A stretch of 7,692 nt of DNA from a virus (Duplodnaviria > Heunggongvirae > Uroviricota > Caudoviricetes), in IMG/VR virus record IMGVR_UViG_2579778773_000006. One strand, 5' to 3'. The position numbers and the translations under genes are program-made. The notes under the pieces were generated by a model, which worked only from the letters and a program-made list of their open reading frames with translations, ran no database searches and had not been told where the DNA came from. Positions 1-7,692 of the stretch are shown here, one piece after another. Positions within the stretch are counted from its first letter, which is position 1. Each line of letters opens with the position of its first letter.

Positions 1-816
1 ATGAGCACTTGCATATATTGTGGTCAGGAAGGGAAAATGACTAGAGAACATATACTCCCGTCTTTCATCTATGAATATCAATATAGTACATCATCTGGGA
101 AAACTATAGGATGGCAAGAAAAATCAAAAAAAATGATAAGTGGTGAGGCTAAAATAAAAGATGTTTGTTTTCATTGTAATAACGTAGTTCTATGTAATTT
201 AGATGGTTATGTCAAAAATATGCTAGAGCGCTCTGGTTTCTTTACAGAGTGTTTTTTAAAAGAAAAAGTTAATATCGATTATAATTATAGCTTGCTTTCT
301 CGCTGGCTACTTAAAGTTGCATTTAATTCATCTAGGGCTAGTGAGAAGAAATTGTCTTTTTTTGATAAATACAAAGATGTTATTTTGGGGTTGAGTTCTG
401 ACTTTTCAGACTTTGCAATTTCGGCTGGGTTGTTTAAACCATTAAAATTGACACCATCGGAAATGCTAAAATATGGCCATAACCTCAAAGCGCATCCTTC
501 GGGATATGCGAATCCTTTCTTTGGTCGAATTTCATGGGGCGAATTCGAATCATCCGAATGCGCGGTGAAACAGATTGTAATTGGTGCCGCAATTTTTCAT
601 ATTCTAGCTTTTAAAGGCGATTTGCATAGAAATCGAAAGAAAGCTTTAGTTAAGGAATATTTAGAAACTTGCAAAGGAATGACTCTCATTAGGAAAAATA
701 AATCTAAAGTAGATGTAATGCAAACCCCCATAACCTTTCTTGACTCAATGAAGCATCATATGCAACGCCCAGAGGTTGAACCATACTTGAGAGAAATATC
801 CCAAAATATCAATTAA
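1..816 (+). CDS. Cargo protein of unknown function with N-terminal HNH-like Cys/His (zinc-ribbon nuclease-type) motif; candidate anti-phage defence effector or free-standing HNH endonuclease
   Basis: Uninterrupted 271-codon ORF from an ATG at window position 1 to TAA at 814-816. N-terminal motif reads C4-x2-C7 ... E16-H17-I-L-P20 ... C56-F-H-C59-N-N ... L-C65-N, resembling the CxxC / (D/E)H-x2-P / N / CxxC layout of HNH nucleases. The remaining ~200 aa carry no motif I can name. Strongly AT-rich and Lys/Asn/Ile/Tyr/Phe-rich codon usage, unlike the phage genes downstream. The ORF touches the window edge, so the true start and any upstream partner cannot be confirmed. Confidence 0.65.
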   Translation: MSTCIYCGQEGKMTREHILPSFIYEYQYSTSSGKTIGWQEKSKKMISGEAKIKDVCFHCNNVVLCNLDGYVKNMLERSGFFTECFLKEKVNIDYNYSLLSRWLLKVAFNSSRASEKKLSFFDKYKDVILGLSSDFSDFAISAGLFKPLKLTPSEMLKYGHNLKAHPSGYANPFFGRISWGEFESSECAVKQIVIGAAIFHILAFKGDLHRNRKKALVKEYLETCKGMTLIRKNKSKVDVMQTPITFLDSMKHHMQRPEVEPYLREISQNIN

Positions 817-964
817 TTTTTGCTCACGCATTTTGATAATAGGAGCTATAGGATGTTTGTGCTTCATTCAAGGTCCGCTCCTCGCTCAAAGCAGACTGTC
901 AGATTTGACAGGGTTTTGGTTACGTAATTTGTCAGTTGGAAACTGAGTGAGTACAAATCAAGGC

Positions 965-993
965 AGGCGGGCTGATTGCCCGCCTTTTCTTTA
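965..993 (+). terminator. Rho-independent (intrinsic) terminator downstream of the cargo gene
   Basis: Perfect 8-bp GC-rich stem AGGCGGGC (965-972) / GCCCGCCT (978-985) with 5-nt loop TGATT, followed directly by the T-rich tract TTTTCTTTAT (985-994). Confidence 0.6.
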
Positions 994-1007
994 TCTGTTG
1001 TTTCATC

Positions 1008-1062
1008 CACTGACCAGTCAGGTCAAATAGCGTCTCATGCACTGCCCAACAGACAATAGTTG
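1008..1062 (+). promoter_or_regulatory. Candidate late promoter region (PF-like) for the FI-FII-E-T-U-D operon, containing a dyad-symmetry element
   Basis: Overlapping inverted repeats CTGAC(1010-1014)/GTCAG(1017-1021) and TGACC(1011-1015)/GGTCA(1021-1025) lie about 65-80 nt upstream of the FI ATG, where P2 late promoters carry an activator-binding dyad. No perfect TGT-N12-ACA match and no convincing -10/-35 pair were found, so exact elements are not assigned. Confidence 0.3.
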
Positions 1063-1088
1063 CACCCATTAACCACGGAGTTAAACGG

Positions 1089-2279
1089 ATGAGTGACTAT
1101 CATCACGGCGTGCAGGTGCTGGAGATTAACGACGGCACCCGCGTCATTTCCACCGTATCCACTGCCATTGTCGGCATGGTCTGCACGGCCAGCGATGCGG
1201 ATGCGGAAACCTTCCCCCTCAATAAACCGGTGCTGATTACCAATGTGCAGAGCGCAATTGCAAAGGCTGGTAAAAAAGGCACGCTGGCGGCATCGTTGCA
1301 GGCCATCGCCGACCAGTCAAAACCGGTCACCGTTGTCGTGCGTGTGGAAGACGGCACCGGCGACGACGAGGAAACGAAACTCGCGCAGACCGTTTCCAAT
1401 ATCATCGGCACCACCGACGAAAACGGTCAGTACACCGGACTGAAAGCCCTGATGGGGGCGGAGTCGGTTACCGGTGTTAAACCGCGTATTCTCGGTGTGC
1501 CGGGACTGGACACCAAAGAGGTGGCGGTTGCACTGGCATCAGTCTGTCAGAAGCTGCGCGCTTTCGGGTATATCAGCGCATGGGGCTGTAAAACCATTTC
1601 CGAGGTGAAAGCCTACCGCCAGAATTTCAGCCAGCGTGAGCTGATGGTCATCTGGCCGGATTTCCTCGCATGGGATACGGTCGCCAGTACCACCGCCACC
1701 GCGTATGCCACCGCCCGTGCGCTGGGCCTGCGCGCTAAAATCGACCAGGAGCAGGGCTGGCATAAAACGCTGTCCAATGTCGGGGTGAACGGTGTTACCG
1801 GCATCAGCGCATCCGTCTTCTGGGATTTGCAGGAGTCCGGCACCGATGCTGACCTGCTTAACGAGTCAGGCGTCACTACGCTGATTCGCCGCGACGGTTT
1901 CCGCTTCTGGGGTAACCGTACCTGCTCCGATGACCCGCTGTTCCTCTTTGAAAACTACACCCGCACCGCGCAGGTGCTGGCCGACTCGATGGCTGAGGCG
2001 CACATGTGGGCGGTGGACAAGCCCATCACTGCAACGCTGATTCGCGACATCGTTGACGGCATCAATGCCAAATTCCGTGAGCTGAAAACAAACGGCTATA
2101 TCGTGGATGCGACCTGCTGGTTCAGCGAAGAATCCAACGATGCGGAAACCCTCAAGGCCGGAAAACTGTATATCGACTATGACTATACCCCGGTGCCTCC
2201 TCTTGAAAACCTGACCCTGCGCCAGCGTATTACCGATAAATACCTGGCAAATCTGGTCACCTCGGTTAACAGCAATTAA
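1089..2279 (+). CDS. FI: Contractile tail sheath protein (P2 gpFI family)
   Basis: 396-aa ORF; the translation (MSDYHHGVQVLEINDGTRVISTV...YLANLVTSVNSN) is recognisable as P2 FI tail sheath, and the length equals P2 gpFI. GGAG Shine-Dalgarno at 1077-1080, 8 nt before the ATG. First gene of the conserved FI-FII-E-T-U-D order. Confidence 0.95.
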   Translation: MSDYHHGVQVLEINDGTRVISTVSTAIVGMVCTASDADAETFPLNKPVLITNVQSAIAKAGKKGTLAASLQAIADQSKPVTVVVRVEDGTGDDEETKLAQTVSNIIGTTDENGQYTGLKALMGAESVTGVKPRILGVPGLDTKEVAVALASVCQKLRAFGYISAWGCKTISEVKAYRQNFSQRELMVIWPDFLAWDTVASTTATAYATARALGLRAKIDQEQGWHKTLSNVGVNGVTGISASVFWDLQESGTDADLLNESGVTTLIRRDGFRFWGNRTCSDDPLFLFENYTRTAQVLADSMAEAHMWAVDKPITATLIRDIVDGINAKFRELKTNGYIVDATCWFSEESNDAETLKAGKLYIDYDYTPVPPLENLTLRQRITDKYLANLVTSVNSN

Positions 2280-2291
2280 GGAGCCTGACCG

Positions 2292-2810
2292 ATGGCAATG
2301 CCGCGCAAACTCAAGTTAATGAACGTCTTTCTGAACGGCTACAGCTATCAGGGCGTTGCAAAGTCCGTCACGCTGCCAAAACTGACCCGTAAGCTCGAAA
2401 ACTATCGCGGTGCGGGGATGAACGGCAGCGCACCGGTAGACCTCGGCCTTGATGACGATGCGCTGTCAATGGAGTGGTCGCTCGGTGGCTTCCCGGATTC
2501 GGTTATCTGGGAGCTTTACGCCGCAACCGGTGTGGATGCCGTACCGATTCGTTTTGCAGGCTCTTACCAGCGCGACGATACCGGCGAAACGGTGGCCGTC
2601 GAGGTGGTCATGCGTGGACGTCAGAAAGAAATCGACACCGGCGAGGGCAAACAGGGAGAAGACACCGAGTCGAAAATCTCCGTGGTCTGCACCTATTTCC
2701 GGCTGACGATGGACGGTAAGGAGCTGGTCGAAATCGACACCATCAACATGATTGAGAAGGTGAACGGCGTCGACCGGCTGGAGCAACACCGCCGCAATAT
2801 TGGCCTGTGA
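2292..2810 (+). CDS. FII: Tail tube protein (P2 gpFII family)
   Basis: 172-aa ORF (MAMPRKLKLMNVFLNGYSYQGVAKSVTLPKL...) recognisable as P2 FII tail tube. AAGGAG RBS at 2277-2282 overlaps the FI stop codon. Lies immediately after the sheath gene as in P2. Confidence 0.95.
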   Translation: MAMPRKLKLMNVFLNGYSYQGVAKSVTLPKLTRKLENYRGAGMNGSAPVDLGLDDDALSMEWSLGGFPDSVIWELYAATGVDAVPIRFAGSYQRDDTGETVAVEVVMRGRQKEIDTGEGKQGEDTESKISVVCTYFRLTMDGKELVEIDTINMIEKVNGVDRLEQHRRNIGL

Positions 2811-2817
2811 TTTTCAT

Positions 2818-2838
2818 CCGGTCAGCCTGGCTGACCGG
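2818..2838 (+). other. GC-rich stem-loop in the FII-E intergenic region (possible mRNA stability element or partial attenuator; not a canonical terminator)
   Basis: CCGGTCAGC (2818-2826) pairs with GCTGACCGG (2830-2838) around a 3-nt loop (9-bp perfect stem). The downstream sequence TTAACCCCCGATT lacks a U-tract, so efficient intrinsic termination is unlikely. Confidence 0.35.
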
Positions 2839-2867
2839 TTAACCCCCGATTCAGAAGTGAGAAAACC

Positions 2868-3143
2868 ATGAACAAAGAAAATGTGATTACCCTGGACAAT
2901 CCGGTCAAGCGTGGTGAGCAGGTCATCGAACAGGTCACGCTGATGAAACCCAATGCCGGGACGCTGCGCGGTGTCAGTCTGGCTGCGGTCGCGAACTCCG
3001 AAGTCGATGCACTGATTAAGGTGCTGCCGCGCATGACGGCACCGATGCTGACCGAGCAGGAAGTTGCCGCGCTGGAACTGCCTGACCTTGTGGCGCTGGC
3101 CGGTAAGGTGGTCGGTTTTTTGTCGCCGAACTCGGTGCAGTGA
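2868..3143 (+). CDS. E: Tail assembly chaperone gpE (zero-frame product)
   Basis: 91-aa ORF (MNKENVITLDNPVKRGEQVIEQVTLMKPNAG...) sits between the tube and tape-measure genes as in P2. Length matches P2 gpE. It contains the slippery run near its 3' end. Confidence 0.9.
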   Translation: MNKENVITLDNPVKRGEQVIEQVTLMKPNAGTLRGVSLAAVANSEVDALIKVLPRMTAPMLTEQEVAALELPDLVALAGKVVGFLSPNSVQ

Positions 3144-3295
3144 CGTTCCCGAAAAATCTCTCGGTCGATGACCTGATGGCGGATGTGGCAGTGATATTTC
3201 ACTGGCCGCCATCAGAACTGTATCCCATGAGCCTGACCGAACTCATCACATGGCGCGAAAAGGCGCTCCGGCGAAGCGGAAACACGAATGAGTAA
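2868..3295 (+). CDS. E+E': Tail assembly chaperone frameshift product gpE+E' (made by -1 frameshift near 3119-3122)
   Basis: Shifting -1 at the TTTTTTG site gives the continuation ...VAELGAVTFPKNLSVDDLMADVAVIFHWPPSELYPMSLTELITWREKALRRSGNTNE, ending at TAA 3293-3295. The predicted fusion is 142 aa, the length known for P2 E+E'. The arrangement parallels the G/GT chaperone frameshift conserved upstream of tape-measure genes. Confidence 0.7.
3114..3122 (+). promoter_or_regulatory. Programmed -1 ribosomal frameshift slippery site (G GTT TTT TG) for E -> E+E'
   Basis: A T6 run (3116-3121) lies within GGT-TTT-TTG in the E frame, 7 codons before the E stop. The -1 frame is open from here to TAA at 3293-3295. 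Confidence 0.7.
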
Positions 3296-5735
3296 CAATG
3301 TAAAATTACAGGTATTGCTCAGGGCTGTTGACCAGGCATCCCGCCCGTTTAAATCCATCCGCACAGCGAGTAAGTCGCTGTCGGGGGATATCCGGGAAAC
3401 ACAAAAATCACTGCGCGAGCTGAACGGTCACGCATCCCGTATTGAGGGATTCCGCAAGACCAGTGCACAGCTCGCCGTGACTGGTCATGCACTTGAAAAG
3501 GCTCGGCAGGAAGCCGAAGCCCTTGCCACACAGTTTAAAAACACCGAACGTCCGACCCGTGCTCAGGCGAAAGTGCTGGAATCCGCAAAGCGTGCGGCGG
3601 AGGACTTACAGGCGAAATATAACCGCCTGACGGATTCCGTTAAACGCCAGCAGCGGGAACTGGCCGCTGTGGGAATTAATACCCGCAATCTTGCACATGA
3701 TGAGCAGGGGCTGAAAAACCGTATCAGTGAAACCACCGCACAGCTTAATCGTCAGCGCGACGCACTGGCGCGTGTCAGTGCGCAACAGGCAAAACTTAAC
3801 GCAGTAAAACAGCGTTATCAGGCCGGAAAGGAACTGGCCGGAAATATGGCCTCAGTGGGCGCTGCCGGTGTGGGGATTGCGGCGGCGGGAACGATGGCCG
3901 GAGTTAAGCTGCTGATGCCCGGTTATGAGTTTGCGCAGAAAAACTCAGAATTGCAGGCCGTGCTAGGAGTGGCAAAAGACTCCGCCGAAATGACCGCACT
4001 CCGCAAGCAGGCGCGCCAGCTCGGCGACAATACCGCCGCCTCAGCGGATGATGCGGCCAGTGCACAGATAATCATCGCGAAAGCGGGTGGGGATGTTGAT
4101 GCCATTCAGGCGGCAACACCGGTCACGCTGAATATGGCGCTGGCGAACCGCCGCACGATGGAAGAAAACGCCGCCCTGCTGATGGGGATGAAATCCGCCT
4201 TTCAGCTTTCAAACGATAAGGTCGCTCATATCGGGGATGTTCTCTCCATGACGATGAACAAAACCGCCGCCGATTTTGACGGCATGAGCGATGCGCTGAC
4301 CTATGCCGCACCTGTGGCAAAAAATGCCGGTGTCAGCATTGAAGAAACCGCCGCAATGGTCGGGGCGCTGCATGATGCAAAAATCACAGGCTCAATGGCG
4401 GGGACGGGAAGCCGTGCCGTGTTAAGCCGCCTGCAGGCACCGACGGGAAAAGCATGGGATGCACTCAAAGAGCTTGGCGTGAAAACCTCAGACAGCAAGG
4501 GAAACACCCGGCCAATATTTACCATTCTGAAAGAAATGCAGGCCAGTTTTGAGAAAAACCGGCTCGGTACTGCCCAGCAGGCTGAATACATGAAAACCAT
4601 TTTCGGGGAGGAGGCCAGCTCAGCCGCCGCTGTGCTGATGACTGCCGCCTCAACCGGAAAGCTGGACAAACTGACCGCTGCGTTTAAAGCCTCAGACGGG
4701 AAGACCGCCGAGCTGGTAAATATCATGCAGGACAACCTCGGCGGTGACTTTAAGGAGTTTCAGTCCGCTTATGAGGCGGTGGGGACTGACCTGTTTGACC
4801 AGCAGGAAGGCGCGCTGCGTAAGCTCACGCAGACGGCCACAAAGTATGTGTTAAAACTCGACGGCTGGATACAGAAAAACAAATCACTGGCGTCAACCAT
4901 TGGCCTCATTGCCGGTGGCGCGCTGGCGCTTACTGGCATCATCGGTGCAATTGGTCTTGTTGCCTGGCCGGTTATCACCGGCATCAATGCCATCATCGCG
5001 GCAGCAGGCGCAATGGGGGCAATCTTCACGACGGTTGGCAGTGCTGTTATGACGGCCATCGGGGCGATTAGCTGGCCGGTTGTGGCCGTGGTGGCCGCCA
5101 TTGTCGCCGGGGCGTTGCTTATCCGTAAATACTGGGAGCCTGTCAGCGCATTCTTTGGCGGTGTGGTTGAAGGGCTGAAAGCGGCATTTGCGCCGGTGGG
5201 GGAACTGTTCACGCCACTGAAGCCGGTGTTTGACTGGCTGGGCGAAAAGTTACAGGCCGCGTGGCAGTGGTTTAAAAACCTGATTGCCCCGGTCAAAGCC
5301 ACCCAGGACACCCTGAACCGTTGCCGTGACACGGGCGTCATGTTCGGGCAGGCACTGGCTGACGCGCTGATGCTGCCGCTTAATGCGTTCAACAAACTGC
5401 GCAGCGGCATTGACTGGGTACTGGAAAAGCTCGGGGTCATCAACAAAGAGTCAGACACACTTGACCAGACCGCCGCCAGAACTCATGCCGCCACATATGG
5501 CACCGGTGGTTATATTCCGGCGACCAGCTCTTATGCAGGCTATCAGGCTTATCAGCCGGTTACGGCACCGGCTGGCCGCTCTTATGTAGACCAGAGTAAA
5601 AACGAATATCACATTAACCTGACGGGTGGTTCTGCGCCGGGAACACAGCTTGACCGCCAGTTACAGGATGCGCTCGAAAAATACGAGCGGGATAAACGTG
5701 CGCGCGCCCGTGCCAGCATGATGCATGACGGTTAA
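3288..5735 (+). CDS. T: Tail tape measure protein (P2 gpT family)
   Basis: 815-aa ORF, equal in length to P2 gpT. The N-terminal region is charged and coiled-coil-like (Q/R/A/L/K-rich). The C-terminal part has Gly/Ala/Ile-rich hydrophobic segments (e.g. LIAGGALALTGIIGAIGLVAWPVITGINAIIAAAGAMGAIF) typical of tape measure proteins. The start overlaps the E' terminus by 8 nt. Confidence 0.93.
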   Translation: MSNNVKLQVLLRAVDQASRPFKSIRTASKSLSGDIRETQKSLRELNGHASRIEGFRKTSAQLAVTGHALEKARQEAEALATQFKNTERPTRAQAKVLESAKRAAEDLQAKYNRLTDSVKRQQRELAAVGINTRNLAHDEQGLKNRISETTAQLNRQRDALARVSAQQAKLNAVKQRYQAGKELAGNMASVGAAGVGIAAAGTMAGVKLLMPGYEFAQKNSELQAVLGVAKDSAEMTALRKQARQLGDNTAASADDAASAQIIIAKAGGDVDAIQAATPVTLNMALANRRTMEENAALLMGMKSAFQLSNDKVAHIGDVLSMTMNKTAADFDGMSDALTYAAPVAKNAGVSIEETAAMVGALHDAKITGSMAGTGSRAVLSRLQAPTGKAWDALKELGVKTSDSKGNTRPIFTILKEMQASFEKNRLGTAQQAEYMKTIFGEEASSAAAVLMTAASTGKLDKLTAAFKASDGKTAELVNIMQDNLGGDFKEFQSAYEAVGTDLFDQQEGALRKLTQTATKYVLKLDGWIQKNKSLASTIGLIAGGALALTGIIGAIGLVAWPVITGINAIIAAAGAMGAIFTTVGSAVMTAIGAISWPVVAVVAAIVAGALLIRKYWEPVSAFFGGVVEGLKAAFAPVGELFTPLKPVFDWLGEKLQAAWQWFKNLIAPVKATQDTLNRCRDTGVMFGQALADALMLPLNAFNKLRSGIDWVLEKLGVINKESDTLDQTAARTHAATYGTGGYIPATSSYAGYQAYQPVTAPAGRSYVDQSKNEYHINLTGGSAPGTQLDRQLQDALEKYERDKRARARASMMHDG

Positions 5736-5749
5736 GGAGGTGACGAAAA

Positions 5750-6229
5750 ATGATGCTCGCGTTAGGTATGTTTGTTTTTATGCGCCAGACGCTGCCACAC
5801 CAGACCATGCAGCGTGAATCAGATTATCGCTGGCCGTCAAATTCCCGTATCGGTAAACGGGATGCCTTTCAGTTTCTCGGTGTTGGCGAGGAAAACATCA
5901 CGCTTGCCGGTGTGCTTTATCCCGAGCTGACCGGCGGAAAGCTGACGATGACCACGCTCAGGCTGATGGCAGAGGAAGGTCGGGCGTGGCCGTTGCTGGA
6001 TGGCACCGGCATGATTTACGGCATGTATGTCATCAGCAGGGTGAGTGAAACAGGGAGTATTTTCTTTGCAGACGGCACACCCCGAAAAATTGATTTTACG
6101 CTGTCGCTCACCCGCGTTGATGAATCACTGGCCGCGCTTTATGGCGATATCGGTAAACAGGCGGAATCGCTCATCGGTAAGGCTGGCAGTATGTCGACCA
6201 GATTCACGGGTATGACGGGGGCGGGATAA
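5750..6229 (+). CDS. U: Tail protein gpU
   Basis: 159-aa ORF (MMLALGMFVFMRQTLPHQTMQRESDYRWP...) at the position and length of P2 gpU. Strong AGGAGGTGA RBS (5734-5742), 7 nt before the ATG. Confidence 0.9.
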   Translation: MMLALGMFVFMRQTLPHQTMQRESDYRWPSNSRIGKRDAFQFLGVGEENITLAGVLYPELTGGKLTMTTLRLMAEEGRAWPLLDGTGMIYGMYVISRVSETGSIFFADGTPRKIDFTLSLTRVDESLAALYGDIGKQAESLIGKAGSMSTRFTGMTGAG

Positions 6230-7392
6230 TGCTGGATGCACTGACATTTGATGCAGGCAGTACGCTGACGCCGGATTACATGCTGATGCTCGACAGCAGG
6301 GATATTACCGGCAATATCAGCGACCGTCTGATGAGCATGACCCTGACGGATAACCGGGGCTTTGAGGCTGACCAGCTTGATATTGAACTGAACGATGCCG
6401 ACGGGCAGGTCGGACTGCCGGTTCGTGGCGCTGTCCTGACGGTGTATATCGGCTGGAAAGGTTTTGCCCTGGTATGCAAAGGGAAATTCACCGTTGATGA
6501 GGTTGAACACAGGGGCGCGCCGGATGTGGTCACTATCCGCGCCCGGAGTGCAGATTTTCGCGGGACGCTCAATTCCCGCCGTGAAGGCTCCTGGCATGAC
6601 ATCACGCTCGGTGCGATTGTTGAGGCGATAGCCTCCCGTAACAGGCTGGAAGCCAGTGTTGCTCCGTCACTGGCCGGAATAAAAATTCCACACATCGACC
6701 AGTCGCAGGAGTCCGATGCGAAATTCCTGACCCGCCTTGCTGAACGCAACGGCGGTGAGGTGTCGGTAAAAATGGGAAAACTGTTGTTTCTCAAGGCGGG
6801 GCAGGGGGTGACGGCCAGCGGTAAAAAAATCCCGCAGATTACCATCACCCGCAGCGATGGCGACCGACATCATTTTGCGATTGCTGACCGTGGAGCCTAC
6901 ACCGGCGTAACGGCAAAGTGGTTACACACCAAAGACCCGAAGCCACAAAAGCAGAAGGTAAAACTGAAACGCAAAAAGAAAGAGAAACACCTGCGCGCAC
7001 TGGAGCACCCGAAAGCGAAACCGGTCACGCAGAAGAAAGCACCAAAAGTACCGGAAGCGCGCGAAGGTGAATACATGGCCGGTGAGGATGACAATGTTTT
7101 TGCCCTGACCACGGTATATGCCACGAAAGCGCAGGCCATGCGCGCCGCTCAGGCGAAGTGGGATAAACTGCAACGGGGCGTTGCGGAGTTCTCCATCAGC
7201 CTGGCTACCGGTCGGGCAGATATTTACACGGAAACACCGGTTAAGGTGTCAGGCTTTAAGCGCGTCATAGACGAGCAGGACTGGACCATCACTAAGGTGA
7301 CACATTTTCTGAATAATAGCGGCTTCACGACGTCCTTAGAGCTTGAGGTCAGGCTTTCTGATGTGGAGTACGAAACAGAAGATGATGAGTGA
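6229..7392 (+). CDS. D: Tail/baseplate protein gpD (late control gene D family)
   Basis: 387-aa ORF, equal in length to P2 gpD. The start ATG overlaps the U stop (TAATG at 6227-6231), suggesting translational coupling. Last structural gene before ogr, as in P2. Confidence 0.9.
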   Translation: MLDALTFDAGSTLTPDYMLMLDSRDITGNISDRLMSMTLTDNRGFEADQLDIELNDADGQVGLPVRGAVLTVYIGWKGFALVCKGKFTVDEVEHRGAPDVVTIRARSADFRGTLNSRREGSWHDITLGAIVEAIASRNRLEASVAPSLAGIKIPHIDQSQESDAKFLTRLAERNGGEVSVKMGKLLFLKAGQGVTASGKKIPQITITRSDGDRHHFAIADRGAYTGVTAKWLHTKDPKPQKQKVKLKRKKKEKHLRALEHPKAKPVTQKKAPKVPEAREGEYMAGEDDNVFALTTVYATKAQAMRAAQAKWDKLQRGVAEFSISLATGRADIYTETPVKVSGFKRVIDEQDWTITKVTHFLNNSGFTTSLELEVRLSDVEYETEDDE

Positions 7393-7410
7393 TGTTTTTG
7401 TTTTATCTGT

Positions 7411-7439
7411 TTGTTTTATAAGGATAAATTAACTAAAAT
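7411..7439 (+). promoter_or_regulatory. Candidate sigma70-type promoter for ogr
   Basis: TTGTTT (7411-7416), 17-nt spacer, TAAAAT (7434-7439), located in the AT-rich D-ogr intergenic region about 35 nt upstream of the ogr ATG. Sequence-only prediction. Confidence 0.3.
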
Positions 7440-7473
7440 GGCACCATCAACAAAACCGGAAGAGGTGCTCGCG

Positions 7474-7692
7474 ATGTTTCATTGTCCTTTATGCCAGCAT
7501 GCCGCACATGCGCGTACAAGTCGCTATATCACTGACACGACAAAAGAGCGTTATCACCAGTGTCAGAACGTGAATTGCAGCGCCACGTTCATCACTTATG
7601 AGTCGGTACAGCGATACATCGTGAAGCCGGGAGAGATCCACGCCGTAAGGCCGCACCCGTTGCCATCAGGACAGCAAATTATGTGGATGTAA
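7474..7692 (+). CDS. ogr: Late gene transcriptional activator Ogr (zinc-finger protein)
   Basis: 72-aa product MFHCPLCQHAAHARTSRYITDTTKERYHQCQNVNCSATFITYESVQRYIVKPGE... with C-x2-C ... C-x4-C zinc-binding cysteines, recognisable as P2 Ogr. AGGTG RBS at 7463-7467, 6 nt before ATG 7474. The ORF-track entry starting at 7411 is a 21-codon in-frame upstream extension with no RBS and is not used. Confidence 0.9.
   Translation: MFHCPLCQHAAHARTSRYITDTTKERYHQCQNVNCSATFITYESVQRYIVKPGEIHAVRPHPLPSGQQIMWM

Follow-up and report, generated by a model that had tools for sequence, protein, structure and literature searches.

The occurrence of AT-rich cargo between genes G and FI of P2-like phages has been known since the 1990s–2000s and is hence ordinary in itself. 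In the account that Benler and Koonin (PMC8987985) give of Nilsson et al. 2004, the inverted repeats around fun were proposed as site-specific recombination sites, and the same account reports the idea of a site-specific exchange of the Z/fun locus with bacterial genomes. Vassallo et al. 2022 (PMC9519451) describe a second defence-enriched locus of P2, which contains fun, and Moura de Sousa et al. 2026 (PMC13586616) report a hotspot within the tail genes and call the mechanism of its exchange with other elements unclear. Here we describe a 7,692-nt stretch of DNA from a virus of the class Caudoviricetes (IMG/VR record IMGVR_UViG_2579778773_000006), hereafter the window, in which one AT-rich open reading frame (ORF) at 1–816 precedes the late tail genes of a P2-like phage. 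The region is another cargo in the known hotspot, with flanking repeats of a known type. As in the P2 Z/fun locus, an AT-rich cargo (P2 fun has a guanine-plus-cytosine (GC) fraction of 0.328) occupies the G/FI slot between the same flanking sites. Unlike that locus, the window carries a 271-amino-acid (aa) HNH-like ORF, not fun, at the end of a multi-cassette island with IS2.

We consider it likely that this ORF is the cargo of a portable cassette in a P2-like hotspot, bounded by exchange sites and not mosaic. The seam between cargo and phage is a 24-bp site whose grammar and crossover position are legible from public sequences. According to recent large surveys, the defence loci of P2 and other elements swap very fast by a mechanism called unknown, and the sites described here, labelled HP1 and HP2, make the question testable.

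Composition and mobility of the cargo gene

The cargo ORF has a GC fraction of 0.344, with 0.294 at third codon positions (GC3), against 0.540–0.583 and 0.606–0.707 for the tail genes FI, FII, E, T, U and D, a GC3 gap of 32–41 points; the backbone has a GC of 0.557. Among the 5,789 segments of 816 nt that fit within 1089–7692, GC ranges from 0.499 to 0.597 (mean 0.561, standard deviation 0.016), which leaves the cargo 13 standard deviations below the backbone (z -13) and far outside its range. A single change point is best placed at 961 (support 841–967, log-likelihood ratio (LLR) 69.6), and the maximum-likelihood pair of change points falls at 858 and 1104, dividing the sequence into parts of GC 0.344, 0.467 and 0.574. 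The position near 1089 is therefore the second step, at the start of FI coding, and the foreign block stops near 858–872; the stretch between the block and FI is P2 intergenic DNA of intermediate GC. A preliminary description, made by eye, had proposed a sharp base-composition discontinuity, AT-rich DNA at 1–480 and 600–816 (here GC 0.323 and 0.333–0.338) and GC-rich tail genes with G/C-ending codons, and sliding-window GC and GC3 calculations bear out each of these points. The transition it placed near 1089 stands as the second step but not as the end of the foreign block. The composition step marks the place where a mobile AT-rich cargo meets the phage backbone. Members of the gene family have a GC of 30–35% in hosts whose flanking DNA ranges from 40 to 63%; the family is AT-rich whatever the host, and the low GC is therefore a property of the family rather than the signature of an AT-rich donor.

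The distribution of the unit argues strongly for mobility. All 111 P2-like phage records that match the window do so only from 869–878 onwards, and none of them carries 1–868. The gene order is G, cargo, FI, and other phages hold different cargo in the same place: in 35 P2-like loci the DNA between the two sites has a GC of 0.32–0.47 and the downstream DNA one of 0.36–0.60 (mostly 0.50–0.58). The cargo unit itself was found in 4 of 5,426 complete E. coli genomes, each time in a different setting, namely the G/FI hotspot of a P2-like prophage in CE0011b (locus L001), a chromosomal island with integrases in NB4833 (L003), the end of an e14-like prophage after pinE in EC11 and the end of a lambda-like prophage beside bio in J31. 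By pairwise BLAST, the block common to the four contexts extends from -226 to +888/899 relative to the ATG, about 1.1 kb, at 98–100% identity. Because it is absent from the 111 P2-like records and near-identical in non-P2 contexts, the ORF is almost certainly acquired cargo in the known G/FI (Z/fun) hotspot, and the earlier suggestion of a horizontally acquired insertion is thereby upheld, with four unrelated contexts and a known hotspot behind it. A composition set by gene-specific constraints such as amino-acid content or expression, in a native P2 gene that was never acquired, would fit the AT-richness of the family in every host, so that part of the bias is intrinsic. However, this explanation is refuted by the absence from P2-like records and by the block shared with other contexts; the size of the GC3 gap and a sharp seam falling at a shared site also speak against it, and we leave it practically no chance.

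In CE0011b, whose prophage is 100% identical to the window over 1–900, the cargo ORF ends an accessory island of about 6.4 kb between the tail-fibre assembly gene and FI, with a G-like tfa, IS2 and four ORFs upstream. The CE0011b and NB4833 loci have in common a module of 4,867 bp, with an HP2 site at its start and the HP1 site of the window at its end. Within L001, positions 8030–12896 form a chain of units bounded by HP2-type sites at 8030, 9172 and 9889 and by HP1 at 11775, and IS2 lies at the left edge of this upstream island. Searches of the four upstream ORFs gave no informative Pfam or PADLOC match except one transglycosylase domain.

The cargo gene itself is very probably not mosaic. 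The preliminary description had seen a GC-richer stretch at 480–600 and had read it as a sign of a mosaic gene, with an internal recombination junction or a domain of foreign origin. The stretch is richer numerically (GC 0.450 at 481–600) but indistinguishable from chance. Its best-fitting segment, nt 475–591, has an LLR of 5.8 that was equalled or beaten in 81 of 400 codon shuffles (p = 0.20), and the richest 40-codon segment (p = 0.07), GC3 alone (p = 0.74) and codon positions 1 and 2 together (p = 0.17) were likewise not significant in codon shuffles. No codon position taken singly differs from the rest of the ORF (Fisher p = 0.08, 0.15 and 0.26), the excess being greatest at position 1. 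The bump stems from the amino-acid make-up of a conserved core segment: the encoded peptide is rich in G, A, P and R (...HPSGYANPFFGRISWGE...VKQIVIGAA) and includes the near-invariant family residues N171, P172, F173, R176 and V193–A196.

An import of roughly 480–600 from a more GC-rich relative, or a domain of other origin, would account for a GC of 0.45 between flanks of 0.32–0.34, and a weaker rise is also present in the closest enterobacterial homologues (0.38–0.42), though it is absent from Vibrio and Aeromonas. Against such an import stand not only the shuffles but also the relatives. Six homologues were compared at the DNA level (Cedecea, Dickeya, a Salmonella integrative and conjugative element (ICE), a conjugative element, Vibrio parahaemolyticus and Aeromonas), and the protein and nucleotide identity of segment B (residues 161–200) to these six largely tracks that of the adjoining segments A and C, none of them gaining affinity there. 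All 23 aligned relatives are collinear across the full 271 aa, and a profile search of 1.8 billion representatives returned about 880 clusters at 50% identity, mostly of 260–280 aa and aligned over their whole length. Residues 161–200 of the AlphaFold model form strands E175–179, E187–194 and E197–204 with a predicted local distance difference test score (pLDDT) of 84–93 and no separate domain, so that the segment is predicted to supply core strands of a single confidently modelled domain. Import of the segment is accordingly improbable, and the gene is best regarded as one piece.

Boundary sites and the exchange of cassettes

The homology of the window to P2 begins at its only match to the HP1 pattern (0 expected). 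HP1 has the form GTCYGYT-nn-TCGCTCA-n-ARCRGAC, and cassette ends fall inside such sites. A second class, HP2, shares the arms GTCYGYT/ARCRGAC and has the centre GTGCCAR in place of TCGCTCA. In CE0011b a left HP1 copy, GTCCGGTTT-TCGCTCA-CAGCAGAC, lies outside the window at L001 11775–11798 and is followed 18 nt later, at 11817–11840, by an HP2-type site with centre GTGCCAG and degenerate arms. The four E. coli contexts diverge inside the 24-bp site at either end of the unit, where the 5' half of the left copy and the 3' half of the right copy change: across contexts, positions 1–16 of the right site are constant with the cargo and positions 17–24 vary with the context, and the left flank of this site is identical in L001 and L003–L005. 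P2 itself has a GTGCCAA-centred HP2 at 15335, 61 nt after G, and a degenerate TCGCTCA-centred HP1 at 17432, the exact point at which its similarity to the window starts. In e14 of E. coli K-12 (L263 5597–5620; K-12 1199596–1199619), another degenerate HP1-like site, GTCCGCCGCTCGCTTAAAGTGGAC, lies 8 nt beyond the stop codon of the exclusion gene lit, between lit and intE; the small RNA C0293 at the e14 end of K-12 proved unrelated to the sites or to the HP1-spacer-HP2 composite. A reading of the site as a hairpin or RNA was rejected, as positions 4 and 21 do not covary (50 of 110 Watson–Crick pairs against 48 expected). Rfam 15 gave no gathering-score match in the window or in four composite-carrying loci, and chance-level ones only at E ≤ 1. 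The sites are therefore read as double-strand palindromes and not as hairpins. A literature search by sequence string returned no paper with the HP1 or HP2 site sequences as text.

These sites are widespread. The TCGCTCA pattern occurs in at least 120 IMG/VR contigs, and in species-representative genomes such sites are mostly from Enterobacterales among the matches listed. Of the 5,426 complete E. coli genomes, at least 2,150 contain the HP1-spacer-HP2 composite, always without annotation and flanked by hypothetical genes that belong to prophages and islands. In 20 or more of the 35 P2-like loci, G is followed by HP2, AT-rich cargo, HP1 and then pF/FI, and some loci hold a tandem pair of units. 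None of the 129 distinct HP2-to-HP1 intervals is shorter than 339 nt, while HP1-to-HP2 spacing is 15–18 nt in 56 of the 60 shortest intervals (71 in all). The 111 non-redundant cargos have a median length of 1,374 nt and a median GC of 0.41, and their longest ORF lies in either orientation (69 plus, 42 minus) although the sites keep one orientation with respect to the backbone. Of seven cargos sampled at random, three match PADLOC entries (NsnA/PD-T4-2_A, a restriction-endonuclease-like N-terminus and a pVip-like radical S-adenosylmethionine protein). Slots bounded by the same 24-bp sites were also seen in lambdoid phages, on the hok/rem-Q side and on the cII-O side, Shiga toxin phages included (L006, L023 and related IMG/VR loci), so that their occurrence is not limited to P2-like phages.

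Comparison of flanks across about 250 loci indicates where exchange occurs, as the left half of HP1 stays with the cargo and the right half with the backbone. When HP1 pairs share a right flank and have unrelated left flanks (n = 121), positions 4, 6, 8 and 9 differ at about background frequency and positions 17–22 almost never do; pairs with the same left flank (n = 21) give the mirror pattern, and HP2 sites show the same linkage. Once the sites are de-replicated, 13 cargo clusters adjoin the P2 pF backbone, with seven different left halves and one right half (14 of 14), and 11 clusters adjoin a lambdoid backbone, all with the same right half (13 of 13). The window cassette, conversely, has one left half and four different right halves. 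In column profiles of 110 HP1 and 164 HP2 sites the centres TCGCTCA and GTGCCA(R) are invariant, partly by construction given that the search patterns fixed them. Linkage switches between positions 9 and 17, which on this comparative evidence places the exchange point within the 7-bp centre.

In the reading that fits best, positions 1 to about 872 form the right-hand part of an island of accessory genes within the G/FI hotspot, and everything from the backbone half of the 873–896 site onwards is ordinary P2 backbone. The AT-rich ORF is a self-contained single-gene cassette of about 1.1 kb with its own upstream region, ribosome-binding site and 56-nt tail. Cassettes follow the grammar HP2, cargo, HP1, with adjoining units linked by 15–18 nt, and are swapped among P2-like phages, lambdoid phages, e14-like prophages and chromosomal islands by recombination with a crossover in the 7-bp centre, most simply taken as the work of a putative site-specific enzyme of the tyrosine-recombinase type. 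The two heterospecific centres would block deletion and permit cassette replacement. We lean slightly towards a site-specific mechanism of this kind at HP1 and HP2, with a putative recombinase. More tentatively, and at somewhat less than an even chance, HP1 and HP2 may represent a general and largely unrecognised cassette-exchange system of Enterobacterales, akin to integrons in its logic but with other sites and carriers, in which two heterospecific centres serve to move more than 100 accessory or defence genes among P2-like, lambdoid and e14-type prophages and chromosomal islands. If true, this would supply the exchange mechanism called unclear in the 2026 survey of P2/P4 hotspots, and would go well past the 2004 observation of inverted repeats around fun.

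Two other explanations of the sites have to be weighed. The sites may be conserved regulatory elements, with cassettes shuffled by ordinary or phage-encoded short-homology recombination in the manner of PeSL cassettes and without a dedicated recombinase. PeSLs offer a precedent in which motifs flank accessory genes, with modular shuffling and mini-circles (PMC2839356); the HP1-spacer-HP2 composite provides up to about 69 nt of homology, in the cassette's HP2 the right arm overlaps TGGACA, a -35-like element with a 17-nt spacer, and no recombinase was found. Yet the break in linkage falls between positions 9 and 17 for HP1 and HP2 alike instead of being spread over the homology, and the P2 and lambdoid backbone boundaries share just one 24-bp site. 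A fixed site orientation with cargo pointing either way is moreover unexpected for a promoter or terminator module, and in a regulatory-hairpin variant the lack of covariation at positions 4 and 21 means that a hairpin is not selected there. Short-homology shuffling is on this evidence unlikely, if far from negligible. Much less probable still is that the ORF is a free-standing HNH homing endonuclease that cuts the 24-bp site, the repeats being its own target. Its HNH-like motif and its travelling as a compact unit would suit such an enzyme, and HNH homing genes are common in phages. However, the same sites flank at least 111 unrelated cargos, P2 fun among them, and the homologues lie in integron-type arrays, an ICE and islets, mostly without HP1; in the one scanned locus that has it, HP1 is 1.2 kb downstream, past another gene. 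As a conserved C-terminal domain of about 190 aa and some 880 clusters also suit a cellular function better, the homing reading was rejected.

Several points weigh against the portable, site-bounded cassette. The loci examined revealed neither a recombinase nor any excised circle or empty site; no recombinase gene consistently adjoins the sites, the integrase and invertase genes near some copies differing in kind. The site arms are alike enough that short-homology recombination fits on sequence alone, and the HP1 and HP2 linkage pairs are not phylogenetically independent, de-replication having been by flank cluster only. The cassette's own left HP2 copy is degenerate (GTCTACT...GTGGAC), and neither the left site nor the putative promoter is contained in the window, so that both were read from genomes 99.4–100% identical to it over 1–900. 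A putative moron, or autonomous transcription unit in a prophage, the cargo gene would have its own promoter in that upstream DNA, where an extended -10 element, TGTTATAAT, was spotted, by eye only, about 48 nt ahead of the gene; a promoter scan upstream of the cargo gave 3 matches against 4.9 in shuffles, none beyond chance. As for the protein, its match to Pfam HNH_5 (PF14279; E = 0.014) lies under the Pfam gathering threshold (15.8 against 27.5 bits) and covers residues 4–22 and the first 22 profile positions only, and the protein has no match in PADLOC, NCBIfam, PDB or BFVD.

The cargo protein and the layout of the window

The cargo product is predicted to combine an HNH/His-Me zinc nuclease motif at its N-terminus with a C-terminal domain whose fold is unmatched. 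The motif, interrupted by an insert of about 30 residues, consists of residues invariant or at least 90% conserved in alignment A1 (H17, C56, C59 and N60 invariant; C4 and C7 at least 90%). HNH_5 is matched at E ≤ 0.1 by 22 of 23 relatives (best 7.7e-6) and by 10 of 10 distant relatives tested, one of which attains 28.2 bits. The AlphaFold model of the cargo protein is confident (pLDDT 86.6, predicted template-modelling score 0.87), and fold searches with it gave no significant match to HNH structures. The roughly 190 residues after the motif have no match in Pfam, NCBIfam, PADLOC, PDB or BFVD. A PDB sequence profile search returned nothing, PHROGs gave weak matches only, to families of uncharacterised function, and PADLOC-DB 2.0 yielded no match for the cargo protein, one marginal match among 23 relatives and marginal ones only among 10 distant relatives.

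The homologue set comprises 30 homologues in addition to the clusters described above. Solitary genes of the family were found in an ICE, next to AbiH on a conjugative element and in a small chromosomal islet in Dickeya, and an Aeromonas relative lies near Mks, Fic and toxin-antitoxin genes. In EC11 the cargo gene occupies the e14 slot after pinE where K-12 has mcrA; a McrA-like identity was rejected, the protein having no detectable sequence similarity to McrA. V. parahaemolyticus homologues of about 50% identity (L134–L136) sit in long arrays of short cassettes split by ORFs the size of ~90-nt repeats. These arrays adjoin Tae4/Tai4 and acetyltransferase cassettes, a layout typical of a chromosomal integron, and chromosomal-integron cassettes are documented stores of defence genes. 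A subfamily of about 420–440 aa (P0028–P0030, P0080, P0087 and others) joins the same module of about 255 aa to a C-terminal extension of about 170 aa. From context, the most likely role of the cargo protein, at about an even chance, is that of a stand-alone defence nuclease protecting the lysogen against other phages. A family of some 880 clusters with a confident model that lacks a fold match, absent from PADLOC and occupying defence-type slots in five or more kinds of mobile element, makes the gene a reasonable candidate for a new single-gene anti-phage system.

The annotated RefSeq start of the gene is probably 12 codons too short. In L001 the ATG at position 1 is preceded by AAGGA at a distance of 6 nt and by an in-frame TAA at 12 nt. 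RefSeq WP_029396804.1 (259 aa) begins its coding sequence at position 37 of the window (L001 12001–12037 correspond to 1–37). A start at position 1 lengthens the protein by 12 residues, among them the C4-x2-C7 pair, present in at least 90% of homologues, where the HNH_5 match begins.

Coordinates are collected in Table 1. The right flank of the boundary site, 'tgtcagatttgat...', recurs in the 35 P2-like loci. A scan for terminator-like elements found 6 against 0.8 expected from shuffles; among them, the hairpin at 965–985 has an 8-bp stem with 7 GC pairs and was called on both strands. Both this hairpin and the short palindrome some 70 nt before it are conserved in P2 (NC_001895), and neither carries an annotation in that reference record. 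The late promoter pF was placed by transferring the P2 annotation through a blastn alignment of window 817–1100 to P2 17201–17665. Relative to CE0011b, gene offsets shift by 1 nt between FII and E (2810–2868), an indel, and the window therefore derives from a slightly different genome than this best E. coli match. The CE0011b tail-fibre gene H (L001 4279–6054) is annotated as three partial pseudogene pieces, and given this annotation that prophage may be defective.

Table 1. Features of the 7,692-nt window, in order of position
Feature	Position	Strand	Description
Cargo ORF	1–816	+	271 aa, uncharacterised HNH_5-like protein; last gene of accessory island in G/FI hotspot
His-Me/HNH-like zinc motif	10–204	+	C4-x2-C7 ... 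T14-R-E16-H17 ... C56-x2-C59-N60 ... D68; alignment A1
Locally GC-richer stretch	475–591	+	GC 0.45–0.46; encodes conserved NPFFxRISW...VKQIVIGA core strands; not a junction
AT-rich 3' tail of cassette	817–872	+	GC 0.346; accompanies gene in all four E. coli contexts
HP1 right-hand boundary site	873–896	+	GTCCGCTCC-TCGCTCA-AAGCAGAC; 24 bp; inverted 7-bp arms, asymmetric 7-bp centre
Short palindrome	896–911	.	CTGTCAGATTTGACAG; directly 3' of boundary site; conserved P2 backbone; terminator-like scan
Bidirectional intrinsic-terminator-like hairpin	965–993	.	AGGCGGGC-TGATT-GCCCGCCT and T run; P2 backbone, between cargo and pF
Late promoter region pF (putative)	996–1063	+	Ogr-activator site and transcription start, by homology to P2 17555–17626
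P2 backbone	1089–7692	+	ORF listing; RefSeq annotation of near-identical prophage; GC 0.50–0.58
FI	1089–2279	+	sheath
FII	2292–2810	+	tube
E	2868–3143	+	E' extends to 3295
T	3288–5735	+	
U	5750–6229	+	
D	6229–7392	+	
ogr	7474–7692	+	

Comparison with known systems

The cargo protein resembles the HNH_5 His-Me finger nucleases, such as McrA of e14, in its CxxC...EH...CxxCN motif and in forming a single-gene unit. It differs from them in that the motif is N-terminal and split by about 30 residues, and in a C-terminal domain unmatched in PDB or BFVD. Sirona and Nemetona are HNH-related integron systems (bioRxiv 10.1101/2024.07.02.601686).

The nearest alternative model comes from the PeSL cassettes of T4-type phages (Arbiol et al. 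2010, PMC2839356), in which short motifs likewise flank non-essential genes in hyperplastic regions and permit modular shuffling. PeSLs, however, are promoter and terminator modules that recombine by homology, whereas the HP exchange point is confined to the 7-bp centre and the orientation of HP sites follows the backbone, not the gene.

Integron cassettes, which IntI recombines between attC and attI, are alike in several respects. They too combine promoter-independent mobility of single genes with head-to-tail arrays, a boundary inside a short site and a role as a defence store, and the Vibrio homologues of the cargo gene themselves lie in a chromosomal array of short cassettes. Unlike attC, which is 57–141 nt long and folds as a single strand, the window sites are 24-bp palindromes of double-strand type in two classes, and the HP1 site of the window is by eye unlike attC. 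HP loci also have no adjacent IntI and hold cargo in both orientations, and their carriers are prophages and islands of Enterobacterales.

Simple tyrosine-recombinase sites such as loxP, FRT and dif have inverted binding arms around an asymmetric centre of 6–8 bp that matches between partners, and heterospecific lox variants are used for cassette exchange. HP arms are short by comparison (7–9 bp), and by eye the sites have no sequence similarity to lox, FRT or dif. The architecture is nevertheless alike: HP sites have inverted arms and an asymmetric centre, and their two centre types would allow one cassette to replace another without deletion.

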